A stretch of DNA of 46,323 nucleotides from positions 1 to 46,323 of IMG/VR virus record IMGVR_UViG_3300012352_000462, one strand, 5' to 3'. Numbering within the stretch: position 1 is the stretch's first letter; every line of letters starts with the position of its first letter. The notes beneath the pieces are model-generated. The model searched no databases, was not told the DNA's origin, and worked only from the letters and a program-made list of their open reading frames with translations. Positions 1-6,915 of this stretch are shown here, in pieces. The DNA is from a virus (lineage: Duplodnaviria; Caudoviricetes). Position numbers and translations under genes: made by a program.

Positions 1-378
1 TAGGTTCTGCTCTAGGACTTCCTTGCGGTTGATGTGCTTGTTGCCATACCACTCACTCTGGTTTGGCTTCTTTGGCTCAGTCGGCTTGACAGGGAAACCA
101 ACAATCTTGTCAGAGTCAAAGGTCAGTTCCAAACGCCCGTGATAGTTAGTTGTGATACGGATTAGGTCGCCAAACTCATAACCAATCTTGTCCACATTCT
201 TGCTAACAAAATCAGTAATAGCCTTGGCAACCTCAGTCTTGTAGATTGCTAGGTCTGCCTCATACTTCTCGTAGTCAGCAGGGTAAGACGCAACATCAGC
301 GTCAATCTTCTGAATCGCTTCCTCAATCTGAGCGATTACAGCAGCGGTTGGAACTTTTACGGATAGCGAACGAGCCAT
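1..378 (-). CDS. Hypothetical early protein, 3' end runs off the window (MARSLSVKVPTAAVIAQIEEAIQK...)
   Basis: Own translation: ATG at 378, open to position 1; AGAAAG SD and TGTCAG-N10-TATAAT promoter upstream; absent from the ORF track because there is no stop. Confidence 0.85.
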   Translation of the reverse strand, partial: MARSLSVKVPTAAVIAQIEEAIQKIDADVASYPADYEKYEADLAIYKTEVAKAITDFVSKNVDKIGYEFGDLIRITTNYHGRLELTFDSDKIVGFPVKPTEPKKPNQSEWYGNKHINRKEVLEQNL

Positions 379-409
379 TTTTATCTACTTTCTTTGGGGT
401 TGTGTATTT

Positions 410-431
410 ATTATAGGGGTAGGGTCTGACA
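410..431 (-). promoter_or_regulatory. PafBC/RecA-NDp-like promoter 1
   Basis: TGTCAG-ACCCTACCCC-TATAAT. Confidence 0.75.
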
Positions 432-440
432 TTTATTGTG

Positions 441-467
441 GGGTAGTTTATTGTGATACCCAGCACA
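441..467 (-). ncRNA. Compact H-type pseudoknot, copy 1, just after a stop codon
   Basis: UGUG-CU-GGGUA-U-CACA-AUAAAC-UACCC; covaries with the copy at 1178-1205. Confidence 0.6.
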
Positions 468-472
468 TTCCG

Positions 473-706
473 CTAAAAGATTCCTAGAATCTTCTTGCGT
501 GGAACAGTAACAGTCTTAGTAACAACCTTTTCGATTACCTTAGCCTGTGGCAGAGGAATGAAGCGAGTTTGGTTAGTAGAACCATCAAAAGTTCCATTAG
601 GATTACGGACAACTGCCTTGAATCCCTCACCAGACTTAGTTACCCAAATCTCGGTGCGAACATCTAAGCGTTGATTTTTTCTTTCAGCGATAATCTTTCC
701 AGACAT
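473..706 (-). CDS. Hypothetical early protein, 77 aa
   Basis: ORF track; purine-rich SD and own promoter at 737-758. Confidence 0.8.
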   Translation of the reverse strand: MSGKIIAERKNQRLDVRTEIWVTKSGEGFKAVVRNPNGTFDGSTNQTRFIPLPQAKVIEKVVTKTVTVPRKKILGIF

Positions 707-736
707 CTTTTCTCTTTTCTTCTTCAGGATACTTAT

Positions 737-758
737 AGTTTATCAGTAGGGTCTGACA
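737..758 (-). promoter_or_regulatory. PafBC/RecA-NDp-like promoter 2
   Basis: TGTCAG-ACCCTACTGA-TAAACT. Confidence 0.75.
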
Positions 759-768
759 TTATAGATAG

Positions 769-809
769 TTGGGGGGATAGAGAAAGGATAAGAAACGCTA
801 TCCCCCCAA
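769..809 (-). ncRNA. Stem-loop with 17-nt anti-SD-like loop
   Basis: 12-bp perfect inverted repeat TTGGGGGGATAG/CTATCCCCCCAA; minus-strand loop CGUUUCUUAUCCUUUCU. Confidence 0.55.
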
Positions 810-819
810 GTCTATTTAT

Positions 820-972
820 TTACTTGACAGTAGTCCAGCGTGGCTGACCATTCACATCTAGGCGAACACGGCTTGAGCCATTCTTGTTCAGGACTACTTC
901 CTGAATGATACCTGAAACACCACTCTTAGCGGTGGTGAACTGTGAGCCAACAGTTAGAGTTGCGTTTGACAT
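820..972 (-). CDS. Small beta-rich hypothetical protein, 50 aa (MSNATLTVGSQFTTAKSGVSG...RWTTVK)
   Basis: Own translation; GAAGGAAG SD; canonical promoter upstream. Confidence 0.8.
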   Translation of the reverse strand: MSNATLTVGSQFTTAKSGVSGIIQEVVLNKNGSSRVRLDVNGQPRWTTVK

Positions 973-1039
973 TTGCTTCCTTCACCTAATCAGCATTAGG
1001 ATTTTTCTCGATTTATTTATCAGAACTTCTGATGTATCT

Positions 1040-1068
1040 ATTATGGGGCATAAACGAACTAATGTCAA
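1040..1068 (-). promoter_or_regulatory. Housekeeping-sigma promoter
   Basis: TTGACA-N17-CATAAT. Confidence 0.7.
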
Positions 1069-1177
1069 GTCCAAATGCCACTTTTTAGATGTTTTTTTCT
1101 ACAAAGTTTTGGGGGATTTTTTGTAGCTTTCGTAACTTGACAAATGGGGAGGCTGGGGGATCGGTACCACAAAGTGG

Positions 1178-1205
1178 GGACAGTTTAACGTCGTGTCCAG
1201 GACGT
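1178..1205 (-). ncRNA. Compact H-type pseudoknot, copy 2
   Basis: (A)CGUC-CU-GGACA-C-GACG-UUAAAC-UGUCC; same loops as copy 1 with compensatory stems. Confidence 0.6.
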
Positions 1206-1236
1206 AGGTCCCCAGAAAGGATATAAGAGGGACCTA
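1205..1236 (-). ncRNA. Stem-loop with 16-nt anti-SD-like loop
   Basis: TAGGTCCC/GGGACCTA stem; minus-strand loop UCUUAUAUCCUUUCUG. Confidence 0.55.
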
Positions 1237-1258
1237 GTGCACGTACCCCTACGTACAG

Positions 1259-1978
1259 CTATTTTTTGCTTGCACTGAACAAAATATCATTGCGAGCAAA
1301 TACACATTGCGAACATGCAACACATGCAGAACCCTTTTCGCTAATCAGCTGCAACTTACGATTATTTTCAGGGCATGGAATGGCAGACTTGTCTTGAATA
1401 GTCTTGAAGTCCGCCTTACCTGTAGCAAAGTCTTTAGCAAGATAAGCAAGCTTTACATCATACTGTTGCTTTAGTTCGAATCCTAGGTCCTTGTTGGCCT
1501 CATCCGTAGAAAAGTATAGGCTAAGGTTGTCAATACCAATAAGCATTGGGATAGCAAAGTCTGAACGAGTATATGCCCAAAATTGAACGGTATTGTGCTT
1601 TAGGATTACATCCTTCCATGCATTAGTGTAATCAACATTGAAGAAGTCACCGTCCCAGTGAATGCGGAATAACTTTTCTGCATTACGCTTGTCACACTCT
1701 GCAACAAATTCGGTAATCATATCATCGATTAGGTTATACATGGTAAGGTAATCAGCGTCTTTTACCTGTTCCCAGTTCTTAGTCAATACCTCACGAACAC
1801 CCTTGAATACACGCTCTAGGTTACCTGCATAGCAAATCTTTTCACATACGGTAGTTGCTCCAGGGCATGAGTAAGCTTTTCCGCTAGGTAGGCCAAAGGT
1901 ATTGGCCATGGTTGGCTGCTTGCCTGCCTTGTTAACTTGGTTGGCAACTTTTCTATCTTTTGAACGAATTAGGGGCAT
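1259..1978 (-). CDS. GP88-family phage protein (Cys-rich, radical-SAM-like motif spacing)
   Basis: Motifs FGLPSG..SCPGA..VCEKICYA, FRIHWDGDFF, FWAYTR and C-terminal CPE...CVACSQC are typical of actinophage gp88-like proteins. Confidence 0.75.
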   Translation of the reverse strand: MPLIRSKDRKVANQVNKAGKQPTMANTFGLPSGKAYSCPGATTVCEKICYAGNLERVFKGVREVLTKNWEQVKDADYLTMYNLIDDMITEFVAECDKRNAEKLFRIHWDGDFFNVDYTNAWKDVILKHNTVQFWAYTRSDFAIPMLIGIDNLSLYFSTDEANKDLGFELKQQYDVKLAYLAKDFATGKADFKTIQDKSAIPCPENNRKLQLISEKGSACVACSQCVFARNDILFSASKK

Positions 1979-2002
1979 TGGGGTATCCTTTCAACTATTA
2001 AA

Positions 2003-2031
2003 AGTATACAGCTGGGGTAGGACATTGTCAA
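2003..2031 (-). promoter_or_regulatory. Composite promoter: -35 plus PafBC-like -26 element (promoter 3)
   Basis: TTGACA-A-TGTCCT-ACCCCAGCTG-TATACT (17-nt and 10-nt spacers). Confidence 0.7.
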
Positions 2032-2120
2032 GGATCCTGGGGGAGTTTCTTAAAGTTTCTTAATTTGACATTTAGATCAAGAAGTGATCGGCCCCCTTTC
2101 GGGGACTTTGTCAAGTCTAT

Positions 2121-2393
2121 TTAGTATTCCTCATCCAACTCAACCCAAGGCTGAAGGTGGTGCTGATAGATTATCTCATCGCTAGGGGCAAACTTGCTTC
2201 CTCGATAGGTAACGCCTTCTGGCATTTCAACCATTTTCATCCAGTCACCTGCGAGGGCATTGTCAATAGCCTCTAGGCAAGCGTCAATCATTGAAGACGG
2301 AACTGGTGGATAGTGATTAGACTGAAGGTGCCAGCCAATAGCGGTACGAGTGTCTAGCATTTCTGCCATCTCTTGTGCTTGTAGTGAACCCAT
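2121..2393 (-). CDS. Hypothetical early protein, 90 aa (WHLQSNHYPPVP motif)
   Basis: ORF track; AAAAGGATAA SD. Confidence 0.85.
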   Translation of the reverse strand: MGSLQAQEMAEMLDTRTAIGWHLQSNHYPPVPSSMIDACLEAIDNALAGDWMKMVEMPEGVTYRGSKFAPSDEIIYQHHLQPWVELDEEY

Positions 2394-2408
2394 TTTATTA
2401 TCCTTTTC

Positions 2409-2591
2409 TTATCTAACTAATCCGCTGTTGTAACGGTGTGTAAAACTAACAACTACCTCTTCATAGGTAAGGTCTTCATCAGTGCCTTCGTCATACCCAT
2501 ACTGAGCGATAAACTCTTCCAGCTCTTCCGTAGGGTTGTCGCTTTCTACTATGCGTAGCAACTCTTGTGTCTGGTCTAGTGATAGAAACAT
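2409..2591 (-). CDS. Small acidic hypothetical protein, 60 aa
   Basis: ORF track; AGAAAG SD; promoter at 2630-2651. Confidence 0.75.
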   Translation of the reverse strand: MFLSLDQTQELLRIVESDNPTEELEEFIAQYGYDEGTDEDLTYEEVVVSFTHRYNSGLVR

Positions 2592-2629
2592 CGTGTCTAC
2601 TTTCTTGCTGAGGGGTGTCCAACTCTAAT

Positions 2630-2651
2630 AGCATAGCAGTTGGCACAGACA
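2630..2651 (-). promoter_or_regulatory. PafBC/RecA-NDp-like promoter 4
   Basis: TGTCTG-TGCCAACTGC-TATGCT. Confidence 0.7.
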
Positions 2652-2711
2652 TTTATTGTTTTGATAGGGAATAGATTTTTAGTTAGTTTATTACAATCAA
2701 AGCAGTTGTAT

Positions 2712-2849
2712 TTACTCATACTTTACCAAGCCCAAGTGAACCTGAATGACAGCGAATTCCATTAGGGTTTTCTCTAGGTCAGTTAGTTCACGGCTAACAA
2801 CCTTTTGAGCCTTAGCGATTACCTTGTCTGCGATTTCCTGAGTGTCCAT
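2712..2849 (-). CDS. Microprotein, 45 aa (MDTQEIADKVIAKAQK...)
   Basis: Own translation; AGAAAGGATAA SD. Confidence 0.75.
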   Translation of the reverse strand: MDTQEIADKVIAKAQKVVSRELTDLEKTLMEFAVIQVHLGLVKYE

Positions 2850-2875
2850 TTAGTTATCCTTTCTTAGTTAGTTAT

Positions 2876-2897
2876 AGATTACCAGAGGGGTCAGACA
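2876..2897 (-). promoter_or_regulatory. PafBC/RecA-NDp-like promoter 5
   Basis: TGTCTG-ACCCCTCTGG-TAATCT. Confidence 0.75.
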
Positions 2898-3020
2898 TTA
2901 TAGGAATTCGAATGGGTCACGATCTTGAAAGATCTCTTCGAAGTCTGCGAGGGTATACTGTTCAGGGTTAGCTAAGTAGTCTGCTAATGCTTCCTGAATC
3001 TCTAGTGCTTGCTCATCCAT
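2898..3020 (-). CDS. Acidic microprotein, 40 aa (MDEQALEIQEALADYL...)
   Basis: Own translation; GAGAGGA SD; TAATG coupling to the upstream gene. Confidence 0.75.
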   Translation of the reverse strand: MDEQALEIQEALADYLANPEQYTLADFEEIFQDRDPFEFL

Positions 3021-3178
3021 TAGTTGATATCCTCTCTAATAGCCTTAGCTTTGTTGCTTTGGCGTGTGCCTTTGAACTTGTCTGGGGTAACAATCTGTTT
3101 CTTTCCTGCCTTTAGCATAGAGTGGAACAGAGCCTGTGATTCTGCTTTGCGTCTTGCTTCGTTTCTTTTACCTATCAT
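3020..3178 (-). CDS. Basic microprotein, 52 aa (MIGKRNEARRKAESQ...), probably leaderless
   Basis: Own translation; ATG lies 6 nt after the TAGAAT -10 box. Confidence 0.75.
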   Translation of the reverse strand: MIGKRNEARRKAESQALFHSMLKAGKKQIVTPDKFKGTRQSNKAKAIREDIN

Positions 3179-3513
3179 GCTGCTATTCTATCACTAGGGA
3201 CTGACATTTTACCAATGACTCTACCAATACGCCTAAACTCTTTGAACTGCTCAACTGTGTGAATGATGTGGCAGTTAGCACAGATAATACGGCACTTAGC
3301 AATCTCAGCCAAAATCATAGCCTGTGAGTAACTTGTCATAGAGCCTGGGTTTCTTCTCTTACCTGTGGCAGTAATGTGCTTAGTGTCAGGGTCAAGGTGG
3401 TCAAACTGTAAAGCGGCTGGGTTAGCGTTGTATCCACACTCACAGCAACCTTTGTCAGTCTTGATTTTGTCAAGCATCTTGCGGTTGTCAATCTGGCGTT
3501 GTGATAGAGGCAT
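3175..3513 (-). CDS. HNH endonuclease (Zn-binding)
   Basis: CCECG...LQFDH...EIAKCRIICANCH. Confidence 0.85.
   Translation of the reverse strand: MPLSQRQIDNRKMLDKIKTDKGCCECGYNANPAALQFDHLDPDTKHITATGKRRNPGSMTSYSQAMILAEIAKCRIICANCHIIHTVEQFKEFRRIGRVIGKMSVPSDRIAA
3185..3206 (-). promoter_or_regulatory. PafBC/RecA-NDp-like promoter 6, inside the 3' end of the HNH gene
   Basis: TGTCAG-TCCCTAGTGA-TAGAAT. Confidence 0.75.
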
Positions 3514-3540
3514 TTGGGGTAATCCTTTCTTCTAATAAAA

Positions 3541-3569
3541 AGTATACAGGATTGGGGACTTTTTAGCAA
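3541..3569 (-). promoter_or_regulatory. Housekeeping-sigma promoter
   Basis: TTGCTA-N17-TATACT. Confidence 0.55.
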
Positions 3570-3628
3570 GTTTCTTAAATCGTGTCGTAAATAAAATTCA
3601 AGGGCAGGGCCGATCACACATCTGACGT

Positions 3629-3823
3629 TTAGTCAAATGCATAGAGAGAAGCATACATCTCTCCGATAGCCTCCTCCTCACGGACACGTGCTTCCGCCTG
3701 GCGAAGGTATTCCTTCTGCTCAGGGGTACGAGCTGCCTCCTCAGCAGCAATCTCAGCCTGCCAAGCGAGGAACTCCTCAAACTCAGCCTGCAACTCTTCT
3801 TGGGTCATCTCTGAATCAAACAT
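3629..3823 (-). CDS. Acidic helical hypothetical protein, 64 aa
   Basis: ORF track; GAAAGGATAA SD. Confidence 0.8.
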   Translation of the reverse strand: MFDSEMTQEELQAEFEEFLAWQAEIAAEEAARTPEQKEYLRQAEARVREEEAIGEMYASLYAFD

Positions 3824-3846
3824 GCTTTATCCTTTCAACTAAGACA

Positions 3847-3875
3847 AACATATCACAAATCTGGGGAAAAGTCAA
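3847..3875 (-). promoter_or_regulatory. Housekeeping-sigma promoter
   Basis: TTGACT-N17-TATGTT. Confidence 0.6.
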
Positions 3876-3976
3876 GGGCTTTCTTAAAATCTTTCGTAAA
3901 TAAAAAGATCACGATCAGGGGCCGTTACGGTCCCACAAACCAGGAACCTTGTCAAGTCCCTGGCGTGGCGTGTCGT

Positions 3977-4096
3977 TTAGAACGGTGGCTTGAATAGTTC
4001 CTTAGCCTTGCGGTATCCAACACCGTGAGCCATTAGGTAAACTACGGTAGCAAGTAGAATGTCTACTAGAAGGTTGAAGCCGTTGTAAAAAATCAT
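3977..4096 (-). CDS. Single-TM membrane microprotein, 39 aa (MIFYNGFNLLVDILLATVVYLMAHGVGYRKAK...)
   Basis: Own translation; AGAAAGGA SD; TTGACA-N17-TAAAAT promoter at 4124-4152. Confidence 0.75.
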   Translation of the reverse strand: MIFYNGFNLLVDILLATVVYLMAHGVGYRKAKELFKPPF

Positions 4097-4131
4097 TTGA
4101 GTTTTTCCTTTCTTGTTAGTTTTATTTTAGA

Positions 4132-4293
4132 CTATGGCAGGTAGTCTGTCAAGTCTTGCTCTAGGTAAGCCTCGGCATCAGCGACAGGCATTAGACCCTT
4201 GTAGTCCCCACACTCTGGGCAGATGTAGGCGTGGGTAGTGGTGTAGCAGAAGACGCAGAATCGAAGGTCCTTGTCTGGTGTAGTGTAAGTCAT
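4132..4293 (-). CDS. Zn-ribbon microprotein, 53 aa (CVFC...CPECG)
   Basis: Own translation; AGAAAGGAAG SD. Confidence 0.75.
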   Translation of the reverse strand: MTYTTPDKDLRFCVFCYTTTHAYICPECGDYKGLMPVADAEAYLEQDLTDYLP

Positions 4294-4316
4294 TTTGACT
4301 TCCTTTCTTTTTTATT

Positions 4317-4338
4317 ACTCTAGCAGAGGGGTCTGACA
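4317..4338 (-). promoter_or_regulatory. PafBC/RecA-NDp-like promoter 7
   Basis: TGTCAG-ACCCCTCTGC-TAGAGT. Confidence 0.75.
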
Positions 4339-4339
4339 T

Positions 4340-4507
4340 TTATTTCATTACAGCGTCAATAAACCGCTGGTGGTCAAATCTTGGGTTGTCCTTTGAAAAC
4401 ATTTCTGAAAACTTTTCAGCAACATCAGACAAGATTAGAAAATCTACATCATCAGCCATTGAGTTTAGAATGTTTGCGGTTTCTACATAGTCCTTGCGAG
4501 TCATCAT
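4340..4507 (-). CDS. Phage microprotein, 55 aa (MMTRKDY...DNPRFDHQRF)
   Basis: Own translation; AAGGATAG SD; the motif pattern is recurrent in phage early regions. Confidence 0.8.
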   Translation of the reverse strand: MMTRKDYVETANILNSMADDVDFLILSDVAEKFSEMFSKDNPRFDHQRFIDAVMK

Positions 4508-4519
4508 TATTTTCTATCC

Positions 4520-4669
4520 TTAGTTTTGGTGGGTTAGGGTAAAGGTAAAGTAGCCATCACGCTTGCTTGCTACCTTATGGTGAAACATTGGGTTGCCGTA
4601 TAGGTCTGGGGCAAACAAGCCCAAGCCCTCGCAGGTTTCGCACTTTACTAGTTCTGAATCTTTATACAT
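4520..4669 (-). CDS. Microprotein, 49 aa (CETC motif)
   Basis: Own translation; AGAAAGGA SD. Confidence 0.7.
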   Translation of the reverse strand: MYKDSELVKCETCEGLGLFAPDLYGNPMFHHKVASKRDGYFTFTLTHQN

Positions 4670-4694
4670 TTAGTTTTCCTTTCTTAGTGGTTCT

Positions 4695-4716
4695 AATCTA
4701 ACACAGGGGTCAGACA
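4695..4716 (-). promoter_or_regulatory. PafBC/RecA-NDp-like promoter 8
   Basis: TGTCTG-ACCCCTGTGT-TAGATT. Confidence 0.75.
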
Positions 4717-4717
4717 T

Positions 4718-4897
4718 TTATCGTGTCTTGTTGAGCAACAAATCCATGTATCGCTCTTGAGCGTGTTCTGGCAGGGCATTGAAAGTGTTAGTGTTCATGT
4801 ATCGCTTGCCATCACGAATCATGGCAGGGTTGAAGACGATAGCGTTTACACGCTCCATGAAAGCCTTCTCGGTCTTGGTCATTCTTGGTTTTCTCAT
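4718..4897 (-). CDS. Basic microprotein, 59 aa (MRKPRMTKTEKAFMERV...)
   Basis: Own translation; AGAAAGGT SD. Confidence 0.75.
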   Translation of the reverse strand: MRKPRMTKTEKAFMERVNAIVFNPAMIRDGKRYMNTNTFNALPEHAQERYMDLLLNKTR

Positions 4898-4921
4898 TAG
4901 TTTACCTTTCTTATTACTACA

Positions 4922-4943
4922 AACTTAGCACAGGGGTCAGACA
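4922..4943 (-). promoter_or_regulatory. PafBC/RecA-NDp-like promoter 9
   Basis: TGTCTG-ACCCCTGTGC-TAAGTT. Confidence 0.75.
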
Positions 4944-4993
4944 TTTTAGCTACGACACGCCGTTACCGTTATAAATCCGTTACAAATCTGGGG

Positions 4994-5040
4994 ATCCAAG
5001 ATCTTGTGTCTTAAACCGTAAAAGCTACTATATGTGGGGG
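4994..5040. promoter_or_regulatory. Tandem NrdR-like boxes, pair 1
   Basis: Cores CAAGATCTTG (4997) and CTATATGTGG (5028), 31 bp apart. Confidence 0.55.
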
Positions 5041-5092
5041 CCGTATACGATCCCAGGCGTATCCACACTTGTCAAGTGCGACACGCCGTAGA

Positions 5093-5266
5093 TTACATAT
5101 TTCTTAGCATTTCGTTATAGTCTGCCAATGCCTTGGCATAAATCTCAGGGTATTGCTGAGCAAGTCCCTCTAAACGCTTATCGCTATCCTTCATCTCTTG
5201 GAAGGTTCCACCCCAGTGAGCAGAGTGGTTAGATGAAACTTCTTTTAGCATTTCGTCATAAGTCAT
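5093..5266 (-). CDS. Microprotein, 57 aa (MTYDEMLKEVSSNHSAHWGG...)
   Basis: Own translation; AGAAAGGATAA SD. Confidence 0.75.
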   Translation of the reverse strand: MTYDEMLKEVSSNHSAHWGGTFQEMKDSDKRLEGLAQQYPEIYAKALADYNEMLRNM

Positions 5267-5279
5267 TAGTTATCCTTTC

Positions 5280-5423
5280 TTAGCAGTGAATCTCTAGAAT
5301 CTCTGCGATTTCTGATGAAGTCCTAGCGTAGACTTCTTCGTTACATTCAGGGCAGTTGCCTGAGTAGAAACGGTCATCCCAGTGTAGTGGAACAACCTTA
5401 CCAGTAGTTAGTGAAACAATCAT
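5280..5423 (-). CDS. Metal-binding microprotein, 47 aa (CPEC...HC)
   Basis: Own translation; AGAAAGGATAA SD. Confidence 0.75.
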   Translation of the reverse strand: MIVSLTTGKVVPLHWDDRFYSGNCPECNEEVYARTSSEIAEILEIHC

Positions 5424-5446
5424 TTGTTATCCTTTCTTATAAGTTT

Positions 5447-5468
5447 AGATTAGCAGTAGGGACTGACA
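5447..5468 (-). promoter_or_regulatory. PafBC/RecA-NDp-like promoter 10
   Basis: TGTCAG-TCCCTACTGC-TAATCT. Confidence 0.75.
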
Positions 5469-5469
5469 T

Positions 5470-5604
5470 TTAGTTACAGTCGCCGTATGCTTCGTAGCAT
5501 AGTTCGCAACATTCTTGTCCGAACTCTTCGACATACACTCTTGGAGTGTGGTTGTCGCAAATCTCGCAGAAACCTAGGTCTAGAACATTCTTTAGTGAAA
5601 ACAT
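5470..5604 (-). CDS. Zn-ribbon microprotein, 44 aa (CEICD...CCELCY); paralogue of 6455-6565
   Basis: Own translation; AGAAAGGA SD. Confidence 0.75.
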   Translation of the reverse strand: MFSLKNVLDLGFCEICDNHTPRVYVEEFGQECCELCYEAYGDCN

Positions 5605-5723
5605 CTTGTTTTCCTTTCTTTTATCTTTTTCTTTATCTATATATATTCAATCAGATAAATAGTCATTTGTCAAGCACATTTGGTAACAAATTTATAACGG
5701 ATTTTTTGTAGGGATTCTACAGG

Positions 5724-5771
5724 GGACTATATATAGTGGTCTTAAGGGGCTTTAGCTACTACATCTGGGCC
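5724..5771. promoter_or_regulatory. Tandem NrdR-like boxes, pair 2
   Basis: Cores CTATATATAG (5727) and CTACATCTGG (5759), 32 bp apart. Confidence 0.6.
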
Positions 5772-5833
5772 GTGTAACGGTCCCACATGGGGAGCACTTT
5801 GTCAAGTACATTTTGGTAACATTTTGATAACGG

Positions 5834-5896
5834 TTAGTTGGTTAGCCATGTGAACAGGACGGCCAGGGCAACGAGTACATAGATTACTTCAGTCAC
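5834..5896 (-). CDS. Hydrophobic 20-aa micropeptide (MTEVIYVLVALAVLFTWLTN)
   Basis: Own translation; GTG start overlaps the end of the upstream ORF; AAGGGA SD. Confidence 0.5.
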   Translation of the reverse strand: MTEVIYVLVALAVLFTWLTN

Positions 5897-5969
5897 AATC
5901 TATTCCCTTGTCATCAATAAGCATGATATCAATCAGTCCAATTAGGTATTCTAGTTCTTGCTTATCCAT
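5889..5969 (-). CDS. Acidic 26-aa micropeptide (MDKQELEYLIGLIDIMLIDDKGIDCD)
   Basis: Own translation; TAATG coupling with the upstream ORF. Confidence 0.55.
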   Translation of the reverse strand: MDKQELEYLIGLIDIMLIDDKGIDCD

Positions 5970-6142
5970 TATAGAACCTTGCCTTCTGCTACTACTGAAC
6001 CATTGTCAAAGCGGATGACATAGCCAGAGATGCTACCCTTTGCTACTAGGTCAGAGTAGAAAGACTTTACTGCTTCCTTGTGCTCTGGTGCGTATGATGG
6101 GAAAATCTGTGAGTTGTCTAGGTTCTGTACTACTACGTTCAT
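5969..6142 (-). CDS. Microprotein, 57 aa (MNVVVQNLDNSQIFPSY...)
   Basis: Own translation; AAAAGGATAA SD. Confidence 0.75.
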   Translation of the reverse strand: MNVVVQNLDNSQIFPSYAPEHKEAVKSFYSDLVAKGSISGYVIRFDNGSVVAEGKVL

Positions 6143-6176
6143 TTGTTTTATCCTTTTCTTCTTTGTTTGTACTATT

Positions 6177-6205
6177 AGTTTATGTTATAGGTCAGACATT
6201 GTCAA
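6177..6205 (-). promoter_or_regulatory. Composite promoter: -35 plus PafBC-like element (promoter 11)
   Basis: TTGACA-A-TGTCTG-ACCTATAACA-TAAACT. Confidence 0.75.
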
Positions 6206-6240
6206 ATCTATTTGATAACGTTTCTGTAACGTATATGTCG

Positions 6241-6399
6241 TTAGCACTTGCACCTAACGATCTCAATGTGATCCTTATACACCTTGATAGCACCGAGGGT
6301 ATTACAAGACTGGCAAGCCAATACGCTTATCTTTGGCAACTTACCCAATGCCTTCTTTGCCATTACTGCTTTAGTGATTAGTGCTAGACCTACACCCAT
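6241..6399 (-). CDS. Basic Cys-containing microprotein, 52 aa (MGVGLALITK...CQSC...CKC)
   Basis: Start moved from 6504 to 6399 because an AAAAGGATAA SD and a promoter lie directly upstream of 6399. Confidence 0.75.
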   Translation of the reverse strand: MGVGLALITKAVMAKKALGKLPKISVLACQSCNTLGAIKVYKDHIEIVRCKC

Positions 6400-6426
6400 T
6401 AGATTATCCTTTTCCTTAGTAGTCTT

Positions 6427-6448
6427 ATTATAGTCTATGGCTAGGACA
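6427..6448 (-). promoter_or_regulatory. PafBC/RecA-NDp-like promoter 12
   Basis: TGTCCT-AGCCATAGAC-TATAAT. Confidence 0.65.
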
Positions 6449-6454
6449 TTTATC

Positions 6455-6565
6455 CTAGTGGATTTCTCCATACTCTGACCAGCAGATTTCGCAACCATAC
6501 TCATCAGCCTCCTTGATGAAAACCTTCTCTACTACTACATCGCATAGTTCGCAAACTGAAAACAT
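6455..6565 (-). CDS. Zn-ribbon microprotein, 36 aa (CELCD...CEICW)
   Basis: Own translation; AGAAAGGAAG SD. Confidence 0.75.
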   Translation of the reverse strand: MFSVCELCDVVVEKVFIKEADEYGCEICWSEYGEIH

Positions 6566-6610
6566 CTGTTTACTTCCTTTCTTTTTATTTCTATTTCTTT
6601 ATCTACTTAT

Positions 6611-6650
6611 ACATTAGTCGAAGGGTCAGACAAAGTCAAGACGACACGCC
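6611..6650 (-). promoter_or_regulatory. First promoter of the array: GACAC box plus -35 plus PafBC-like element (promoter 13)
   Basis: GGCGTGTCG-TC-TTGACT-T-TGTCTG-ACCCTTCGAC-TAATGT. Confidence 0.75.
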
Positions 6651-6870
6651 GATGAATCTAAAATATTTTTTGATGGCCACCCAGTGTGTGCGGACTATAA
6701 ATTTGACTTTTATTCTCCAGATCGTGTATCGTACATCTTTGCAAAATATTCAGATTTTCACAAATCTCATTTTTAAAATTTTTTTCAGATTTGCCATATA
6801 ATAGATATAGAAAGCGGAAGACCCAAAGCTGTGGGGGCACCAATTAATTAGCTGCAGCAGGTGATATTTA

Positions 6871-6915
6871 ATGGATTGTAGTTGCGATAACTGCTCATGT
6901 GGCAAGACTAACTAA
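6871..6915 (+). CDS. Putative 14-aa metallothionein-like micropeptide MDCSCDNCSCGKTN
   Basis: Own translation; AGGTGA SD upstream; CxC-x2-CxC. Confidence 0.45.
   Translation: MDCSCDNCSCGKTN

Follow-up and report, generated by a model that had tools for sequence, protein, structure and literature searches.

The TGTC sites of the small-gene array

We analyzed a 46,323-nucleotide (nt) stretch of DNA, positions 1 to 46,323 of IMG/VR virus record IMGVR_UViG_3300012352_000462, which we call the window. These 46 kb belong to a tailed phage, and its head proteins have their nearest counterparts in BE and BK Streptomyces phages and in Rhodococcus phages. At one end lies an array of small, co-oriented open reading frames (ORFs) that diverges from the structural genes, and in it a TGTC box recurs at a fixed distance from a TANNNT hexamer. 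An earlier note, made from the letters of this DNA, had proposed that these sites are promoters of PafBC, a WYL-domain activator of the host DNA damage response, and that the phage uses this alarm as the on-switch for takeover microproteins. From its position and by analogy, we infer that the array is an early region. The words "early" and "takeover" in the note rest on the same two grounds, and the small array proteins gave no family match above the curated cut-off, GP88 excepted.

We found 13 matches to TGTC-N12-TANNNT on the minus strand within window positions 1 to 6900 (Table 1). In 1,000 dinucleotide shuffles of the same region, the mean was 0.39 matches and the maximum was 3. In the earlier note, each coordinate is the position at which the TANNNT hexamer ends, read along the minus strand. 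The sites of the note, its tally of the upstream hexamer (TGTCAG at 5, TGTCTG at 6, and TGTCCT at 2), and its spacing of 10 nt between the two hexamers at all 13 sites were reproduced by the pattern search. With a matrix built from the 13 sites, their own scores ranged from 23.4 to 36.8. The best other position in the window scored only 10.5, so no such site precedes the structural genes, as the note had said of the late genes. An origin by chance or from start codons (ATG-TC) was ruled out: the sites fall between genes or at the ends of genes, the spacing to TANNNT is fixed, and the genes have their own ribosome-binding sites.

The GTC triplet occupies positions -27 to -25 in all 13 sites. 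The -35 consensus is absent from 10 of them and kept in 3, where TTGAC(A/T) with a 17-nt spacer is present at 6639, 6205, and 2031, as previously noted. Across the 13 sites, the core carries an extended -10 TG in 8, TTGAC in 3, and a perfect TATAAT in 2. The earlier statement that each site lies before a small ORF is right for 11 of 13, which precede ORFs of 36 to 77 amino acids (aa). The 2024 site precedes the 239-aa GP88 gene, and the ORF behind the 431 site, at least 126 aa long, continues past the window end. At the 3206 site, an ATG lies 6 nt past the hexamer and a ribosome-binding site is missing, so the 52-aa ORF is predicted to have a leaderless transcript.

Table 1. Positions of the TGTC sites and of other elements of the array in the window
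Feature	Position	Strand	Remark
TGTCTG-N10-TAATGT site, TTGACT -35 at 6634-6639	6611..6632	-	upstream of 36-aa ORF 6455-6565
TGTCCT-N10-TATAAT site	6427..6448	-	upstream of 52-aa ORF 6241-6399
TGTCTG-N10-TAAACT site, TTGACA -35 at 6200-6205	6177..6198	-	upstream of 57-aa ORF 5969-6142
TGTCAG-N10-TAATCT site, extended -10 TG	5447..5468	-	upstream of 47-aa ORF 5280-5423
TGTCTG-N10-TAAGTT site, TG	4922..4943	-	upstream of 59-aa ORF 4718-4897
TGTCTG-N10-TAGATT site, TG	4695..4716	-	upstream of 49-aa ORF 4520-4669
TGTCAG-N10-TAGAGT site, TG	4317..4338	-	upstream of 53-aa ORF 4132-4293
TGTCAG-N10-TAGAAT site, TG	3185..3206	-	predicted leaderless start of 52-aa ORF 3020-3178
TGTCTG-N10-TAATCT site, TG	2876..2897	-	upstream of 45-aa ORF 2712-2849
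TGTCTG-N10-TATGCT site, TG	2630..2651	-	upstream of 60-aa ORF 2409-2591
TGTCCT-N10-TATACT site, TTGACA -35 at 2026-2031	2003..2024	-	upstream of GP88 gene
TGTCAG-N10-TAAACT site, TG	737..758	-	upstream of 77-aa ORF 473-706
TGTCAG-N10-TATAAT site	410..431	-	upstream of ORF starting at 378, off window end
Array of ~22 co-oriented ORFs, mostly 36-90 aa, several CxxC-rich	1..6565	-	inferred early region
HNH nuclease within array	3175-3513	-	
GP88-family gene (PF17338), 239 aa, array marker	1259..1978	-	homologues in terminal-repeat block of Streptomyces BE-type phages
Ordinary promoter-like TTGACT-17-TATGTT, no TGTC	3847..3875	-	
Ordinary promoter-like TTGCTA-17-TATACT, no TGTC at -28	3541..3569	-	upstream of HNH gene
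Ordinary promoter-like TTGACA-17-CATAAT, no TGTC	1040..1068	-	
GACACG/CGTGTC WhiA-like box	6643..6648	.	just upstream of -35; motif per PMC10243135
Further intergenic GACACG/CGTGTC copies	5080-5085, 4954-4959, 4722-4727, 3969-3974, 3581-3586, 1192-1197		

Uncultured relatives and cultured Streptomyces phages

We surveyed the family through IMG/VR loci around gp88, using the best 80 of 596 confirmed. On the sense strand, these loci hold 976 sites at a gap of 10 nt, compared with 70 to 187 at gaps of 7 to 9 and 11 to 13. At least 7 sites are present in 69 of the 80 loci, with up to 33 in one locus; 10 of the 80 have 4 or fewer. When the loci were clustered at 80% GP88 identity, 16 of 20 clusters held a member with at least 7 sites. 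A ribosome-binding site and start codon follow 540 of 762 distinct gap-10 sites and 7 to 26% of those at other gaps. We also found a peak of ATG 6 nt past the hexamer (57 of 759, against 1 to 18 at other offsets), as would be expected for a true -10 element with leaderless starts. In three complete relatives, the sites cluster in one block of ~8 to 12 kb. The feature is real and family-wide.

Most of these sites have no recognizable -35 box, with 478 of 578 phage sites showing at least 3 mismatches to TTGACA. Upstream of gp88 itself, 45 of the 80 loci have TGTC only, 16 have a -35 only, 3 have both, and 16 have neither; the TGTC and -35 elements therefore replace each other. Separately, TTGACA promoters were seen in gp88-bearing loci with few or no TGTC sites (L021, L025, and L040 to L043). 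The closest complete relative encodes a pyrimidine dimer glycosylase and RtcB (L082:3426-5787), consistent with a UV-exposed habitat.

Five cultured BE-type phages also have gp88 homologues, located in their terminal-repeat block. In the first 11 kb, minus strand, we found 7 sites in Mildred21, 7 in NootNoot, and 6 in Coruscant, where 0.35 to 0.51 were expected (500 shuffles, with maxima of 2 to 4). The same region of the Karimacvirus members BoomerJR and Enygma has 1 and 0 sites. In Mildred21, NootNoot, and Coruscant, the sites are mostly upstream of terminal-repeat genes, the region homologous to the array. The five phages together have 102 candidate -10 boxes; 18 of these have TGTC at -28, and no other offset has TGTC more than twice. 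A partial -35 is retained in most of these promoters, and RG after TGTC is rare. Whole-genome counts of motif and control did not separate in the five phages (20/26, 28/22, 14/6, 2/0, and 12/10): the TGTC signal is local, not genome-wide. No TGTC cluster was found in the stretches read of Rhodococcus phages Grayson and Trina or of BK-type phages Wakanda (60 of 127 kb) and Annadreamy. The intergenic spacers of Annadreamy (L081) carry a repeated hairpin followed by CAAGCT.

PafBC promoters and the candidate hosts

The published consensus for PafBC promoters is tGTCgg(N10)tA(N3)T with the upstream box at -28 to -23; in the cryo-electron microscopy structure, PafB contacts -23 to -28, and its R46/R50 pair reads GTC (PMC8635444). 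These promoters are not read by the polymerase holoenzyme alone (PMC8635444), and PafBC requires single-stranded DNA in vitro (PMC11804915). In Mycobacterium smegmatis, however, recA P1 loses half of its output on deletion of pafBC even when no damage is added (PMC5656591). A cell may therefore contain some active PafBC when it is infected.

The geometry of the phage sites is identical to that of this -26/-10 promoter. The strict form of the RecA-NDp consensus quoted in the earlier note, TGTCRG-N10-TANNNT, describes only 5 of the 13 window sites, and none has TGTCGG; the looser tGTCgg(N10)tA(N3)T fits all 13. In relatives, TGTCRG-TGG, the RecA-NDp consensus as published (PMC5656591), is common. 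A tolerance test on 278 filtered sites gave no exceptions at G-27 or C-25, 5 at -28, and 2 at -26, which fits PafB; in a looser site set, mismatches occur at all four TGTC positions. With a matrix made from host sites only, the 13 window sites ranked 1 to 7, 10, 11, 14, 16, 28, and 45 among 92,596 positions. We give these ranks little weight because the TGTC and TA..T columns are common to the search pattern. By each sequence test, the phage sites resemble PafBC promoters, their predicted class.

The likely host is an actinobacterium of the acI or Rhodoluna type. In the closest complete relative, NrdE matches "Candidatus Nanopelagicus" and Actinomycetota at 79 to 81%, Rhodoluna at 76%, and enterobacteria at 72 to 75%. 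Its top match, at 84%, is on a contig in a Beijerinckiaceae bin (L145), possibly a misbinned phage; with this top match and the enterobacterial values, NrdE is a weak host pointer. At least two WYL matches are present in all 61 sampled genomes of the family of genome G006 and in all 5 first candidates. The G006 protein aligns to mycobacterial PafB with an E value of 2.7e-28, and the R46/R50 pair is kept in 15 of 16 PafB rows of candidate hosts.

For recA, we used loci from 30 of 53 and 30 of 40 matches plus two more, and we dropped three in which little DNA lay upstream. At a gap of 10 nt, a YGTC box precedes recA in 25 of 28 acI-family loci and 18 of 31 Rhodoluna-set loci, and other gaps gave one match; two more acI-family loci with the box were dropped by the filter. 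In one group of recA promoters from the genus Rhodoluna (L272 to L277, L279 to L281, L284, and L285), there is no GTC at the PafBC position. Two single-contig host genomes have 21 and 13 pattern matches, of which 5 and 4, respectively, precede recA, dnaX, dinB, genes for a UvrD-family helicase and a DEDD exonuclease, and what are presumably a gene that diverges from lexA and a dnaE2-like operon.

The probable reader of the box and further inputs

We put the probability at about two in three that host PafBC boosts hybrid promoters of the phage's small genes, reading TGTC in place of the -35 box. PafBC as the reader in either role, booster or switch, is likelier still. In the proposed mechanism, PafBC would read TGTC at -28 to -25, and the strong -10 and extended -10 elements would give basal firing by sigma-A, which PafBC amplifies and does not gate. 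Damage already present, or the processing of phage or host DNA in the course of infection, would supply the single-stranded DNA, and transcription of the probably early small genes would be boosted. Extended -10 promoters can work without a -35 box. A role for TG as compensation for a lost -35 was not supported, with TG in 34 of 62 sites that have a -35 and 279 of 478 that do not (P = 0.68).

Several observations weigh against PafBC. The host recA sites share the box and the gap with the phage sites and differ in the core: the extended -10 TG at -15/-14 is present in 338 of 578 phage sites and in 1 of 38 host recA sites, and a -10 within one mismatch of TATAAT is present in 292 of 578 and in 0 of 38. 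Position -28 is T in the phages and mostly C in acI recA promoters, spacer positions -21 to -19 are CCC in the window and mostly GG at host recA, and 13 of the 31 Rhodoluna-set recA loci have no box. In the two single-contig genomes, the remaining pattern matches fall within coding DNA or upstream of unrelated genes, and the genome totals are not enriched (21 versus 12 in the control and 13 versus 29). Few-site loci (4 sites or fewer) that were inspected and have clear promoters use -35 boxes; with 10 of 80 loci of this kind, the TGTC box appears dispensable in parts of the family. RecA-NDp promoters are reported for Streptomyces (PMC5087735), while for Streptomyces venezuelae PafBC homologues are reported with the motif not conserved (PMC9380542). 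Finally, complete relatives encode DNA-binding proteins of their own: WhiB (in 5 of 5), a MerR-like helix-turn-helix (HTH) protein, and a 50-aa HTH protein.

Those proteins lead to the strongest rival, a MotA-like phage activator (one of the three or an unrecognized small protein) that reads TGTC, with the likeness to PafBC due to convergence or ancestry. Complete uncultured relatives are 107 to 117 kb long, and the window holds only 46 kb of a ~110-kb genome, so the phage's own regulators may lie outside it. Among ORFs of at least 35 aa conserved in three genomes, we found the MerR-like HTH protein before dnaB, the 50-aa HTH protein, WhiB, and an FmdB-like zinc ribbon. The phage motif also has conserved bases beyond the PafB contacts (CCC or GG at -21 to -19 and AA upstream). 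The WhiB and HTH proteins are possible readers. However, these three are also encoded by numerous Streptomyces phages, among them Wakanda, where the stretches read have no TGTC cluster, so a phage reader is not favored. The candidates sit in the replication and late block, outside the array, and an exact match in sequence and spacing to an element that the likely hosts use is unlikely by convergence. An Atlas search with the pre-dnaB HTH protein matched unnamed viral clusters only. A PafB-HTH profile run against 18,071 six-frame pieces (the window, the loci, and three whole relatives) gave no match, with a best E value of 2.7. No WYL domain was found in the five complete relatives, and sigma region 4 gave nothing above the cut-off there. 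The Pfam scan covered 135 ORFs of genome G001, with most structural genes, ORFs below 55 aa, and ORFs across stretch borders left out. We consider a phage activator unlikely.

Somewhat less probable again is the strict on-switch, in which the promoters are silent without PafBC activated by single-stranded DNA and infection needs the host alarm. Most sites do lack a -35, 46 of 578 phage sites combine a weak -10 with the absence of both TG and a -35, and the holoenzyme alone does not read PafBC promoters (PMC8635444). In contrast, each of the 13 window sites has a TG, a -35, or a perfect TATAAT, and ordinary -35 promoters stand in the same array. The on-switch is thus unsupported as the earlier note stated it, while PafBC as the reader is favored by the geometry, the family-wide conservation, pafBC and the recA box in candidate hosts, and the failure to find a WYL or sigma gene in the complete relatives. 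Since the core elements of the phage promoters far exceed those of host PafBC promoters in strength, a booster role for PafBC, standing in for the -35, is more probable than a switch.

It is improbable that another host factor reads the box, either ClgR or the sigma-A holoenzyme with RbpA/CarD or WhiA/WhiB. Binding of ClgR to the P1 motif has been reported (cited in PMC5656591), and the WhiA-like GACACGC is strongly enriched, with 395 copies in 69 related arrays versus 35 expected. The structure, however, assigns -23 to -28 to PafB (PMC8635444), and WhiA binds upstream of the -35 at a variable distance and in either orientation, not at a fixed -28 (PMC10243135). Least credible is a decoy, in which many copies on the replicating genome (up to 33 per locus) draw PafBC-polymerase from host repair and defense genes; PafBC has been linked to phage resistance (PMC12848934), but the sites are co-oriented and each precedes a ribosome-binding site or a leaderless ATG, like working promoters.

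The WhiA motif lies within GACACGC (PMC10243135). Its 6-mer occurs 9 times in window positions 1 to 6900 versus 2.3 expected, and a GACACGC-like box precedes 58 of 59 host recA loci. The TGTC box is not described by a WhiA/WhiB motif, and GACACG is a separate box. Together with the WhiB encoded by relatives, the WhiA-like boxes upstream of promoters are a possible second input, host plus phage.

The LexA box has the consensus CGAAC-N4-GTTCG, and one was seen at host recA. Strict LexA boxes number 7 in the arrays of 69 relatives, versus 0.33 in shuffles, and belong to a few lineages; 7 of the 69 arrays hold a LexA box. Boxes with one mismatch were not clearly enriched in the arrays (17 versus 10.9), and the window has none with 0 or 1 mismatch. 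Consensus boxes lie in the array spacers at L001:5781, L007:7818, L009:8001, L034:6560, L036:6237, L037:6235, L038:6243, L066:6337, and L073:5329.

A broader proposal is tentative, and we hold it at somewhat below even odds: a widespread lytic actinophage family, from lake phages to Streptomyces phages of Samistivirus and Coruscantvirus, would use the single-stranded-DNA alarm of PafBC as an early activator and would take additional inputs through WhiA/WhiB and LexA boxes; sensing of incoming or damaged DNA would thereby itself launch infection.

Compared with the known PafBC promoters (RecA-NDp and recA P1; PMC8635444, PMC11804915, and PMC5656591), the phage sites share TGTC at -28 to -25, the 10-nt gap, TANNNT, a mostly missing -35, and the invariant GTC. 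They differ in having 13 to 33 copies before small genes and not repair genes, and in a far stronger -10, a frequent TG, and a CCC spacer in the window in place of GG. The T4 middle promoters (MotA box, AsiA, sigma appropriation; PMC8635444) likewise join a canonical -10 to an activator box that replaces the -35. T4 encodes its own activator, whereas the reader predicted for the TGTC sites is a damage sensor of the host. The terminal-repeat arrays of the cultured BE/BK phages (Stanwilliamsviridae) have a promoter for each small gene, a GP88 homologue, and an orientation divergent from the structural genes. Their -35 boxes are mostly of the TTG type, with TGTC in a subset of promoters in Mildred21, NootNoot, and Coruscant. 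In early arrays of the SPO1 and T5 type, each small gene likewise has a promoter to itself. Host LexA also controls phage and prophage genes, mainly in temperate elements, and these respond by derepression. As with those genes, expression here would be tied to the host DNA damage response, and some relatives carry LexA boxes; unlike them, the phage appears to be lytic, and many of its promoters would be activated.

Our literature search, with most subscription journals outside its reach, found no description of phage promoters read by PafBC, in line with the earlier note. The TGTC sites in Mildred21, NootNoot, and Coruscant and the LexA boxes in some relatives are new here. WYL-domain sensors of single-stranded DNA are known as controllers of DNA repair and antiphage defense, and a phage that employed such a sensor to activate its own genes would turn this role around. 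It would also link the infection of actinobacteria abundant in lakes with DNA damage in the host, for example, by sunlight. The sites in cultured Streptomyces phages make a metagenomic pattern open to bench work, including whether PafBC works in Streptomyces.

Other elements lie near the array. A unit repeated in the long spacers (3924-3957, 5774-5807, and 1158-1191, and 4966-4990 with 5680-5704) consists of TTGACAA with no clear -10 after it, followed by GC-rich and TAAC/GTTA-rich stretches; it may be another protein's site or a small RNA. A terminator-like 21-nt inverted repeat (760-818) lies directly upstream of the 758 promoter. Directly opposite the array head is an N-acetylglucosamine (GlcNAc) glycosyltransferase gene (PF11397; 6930-7895).

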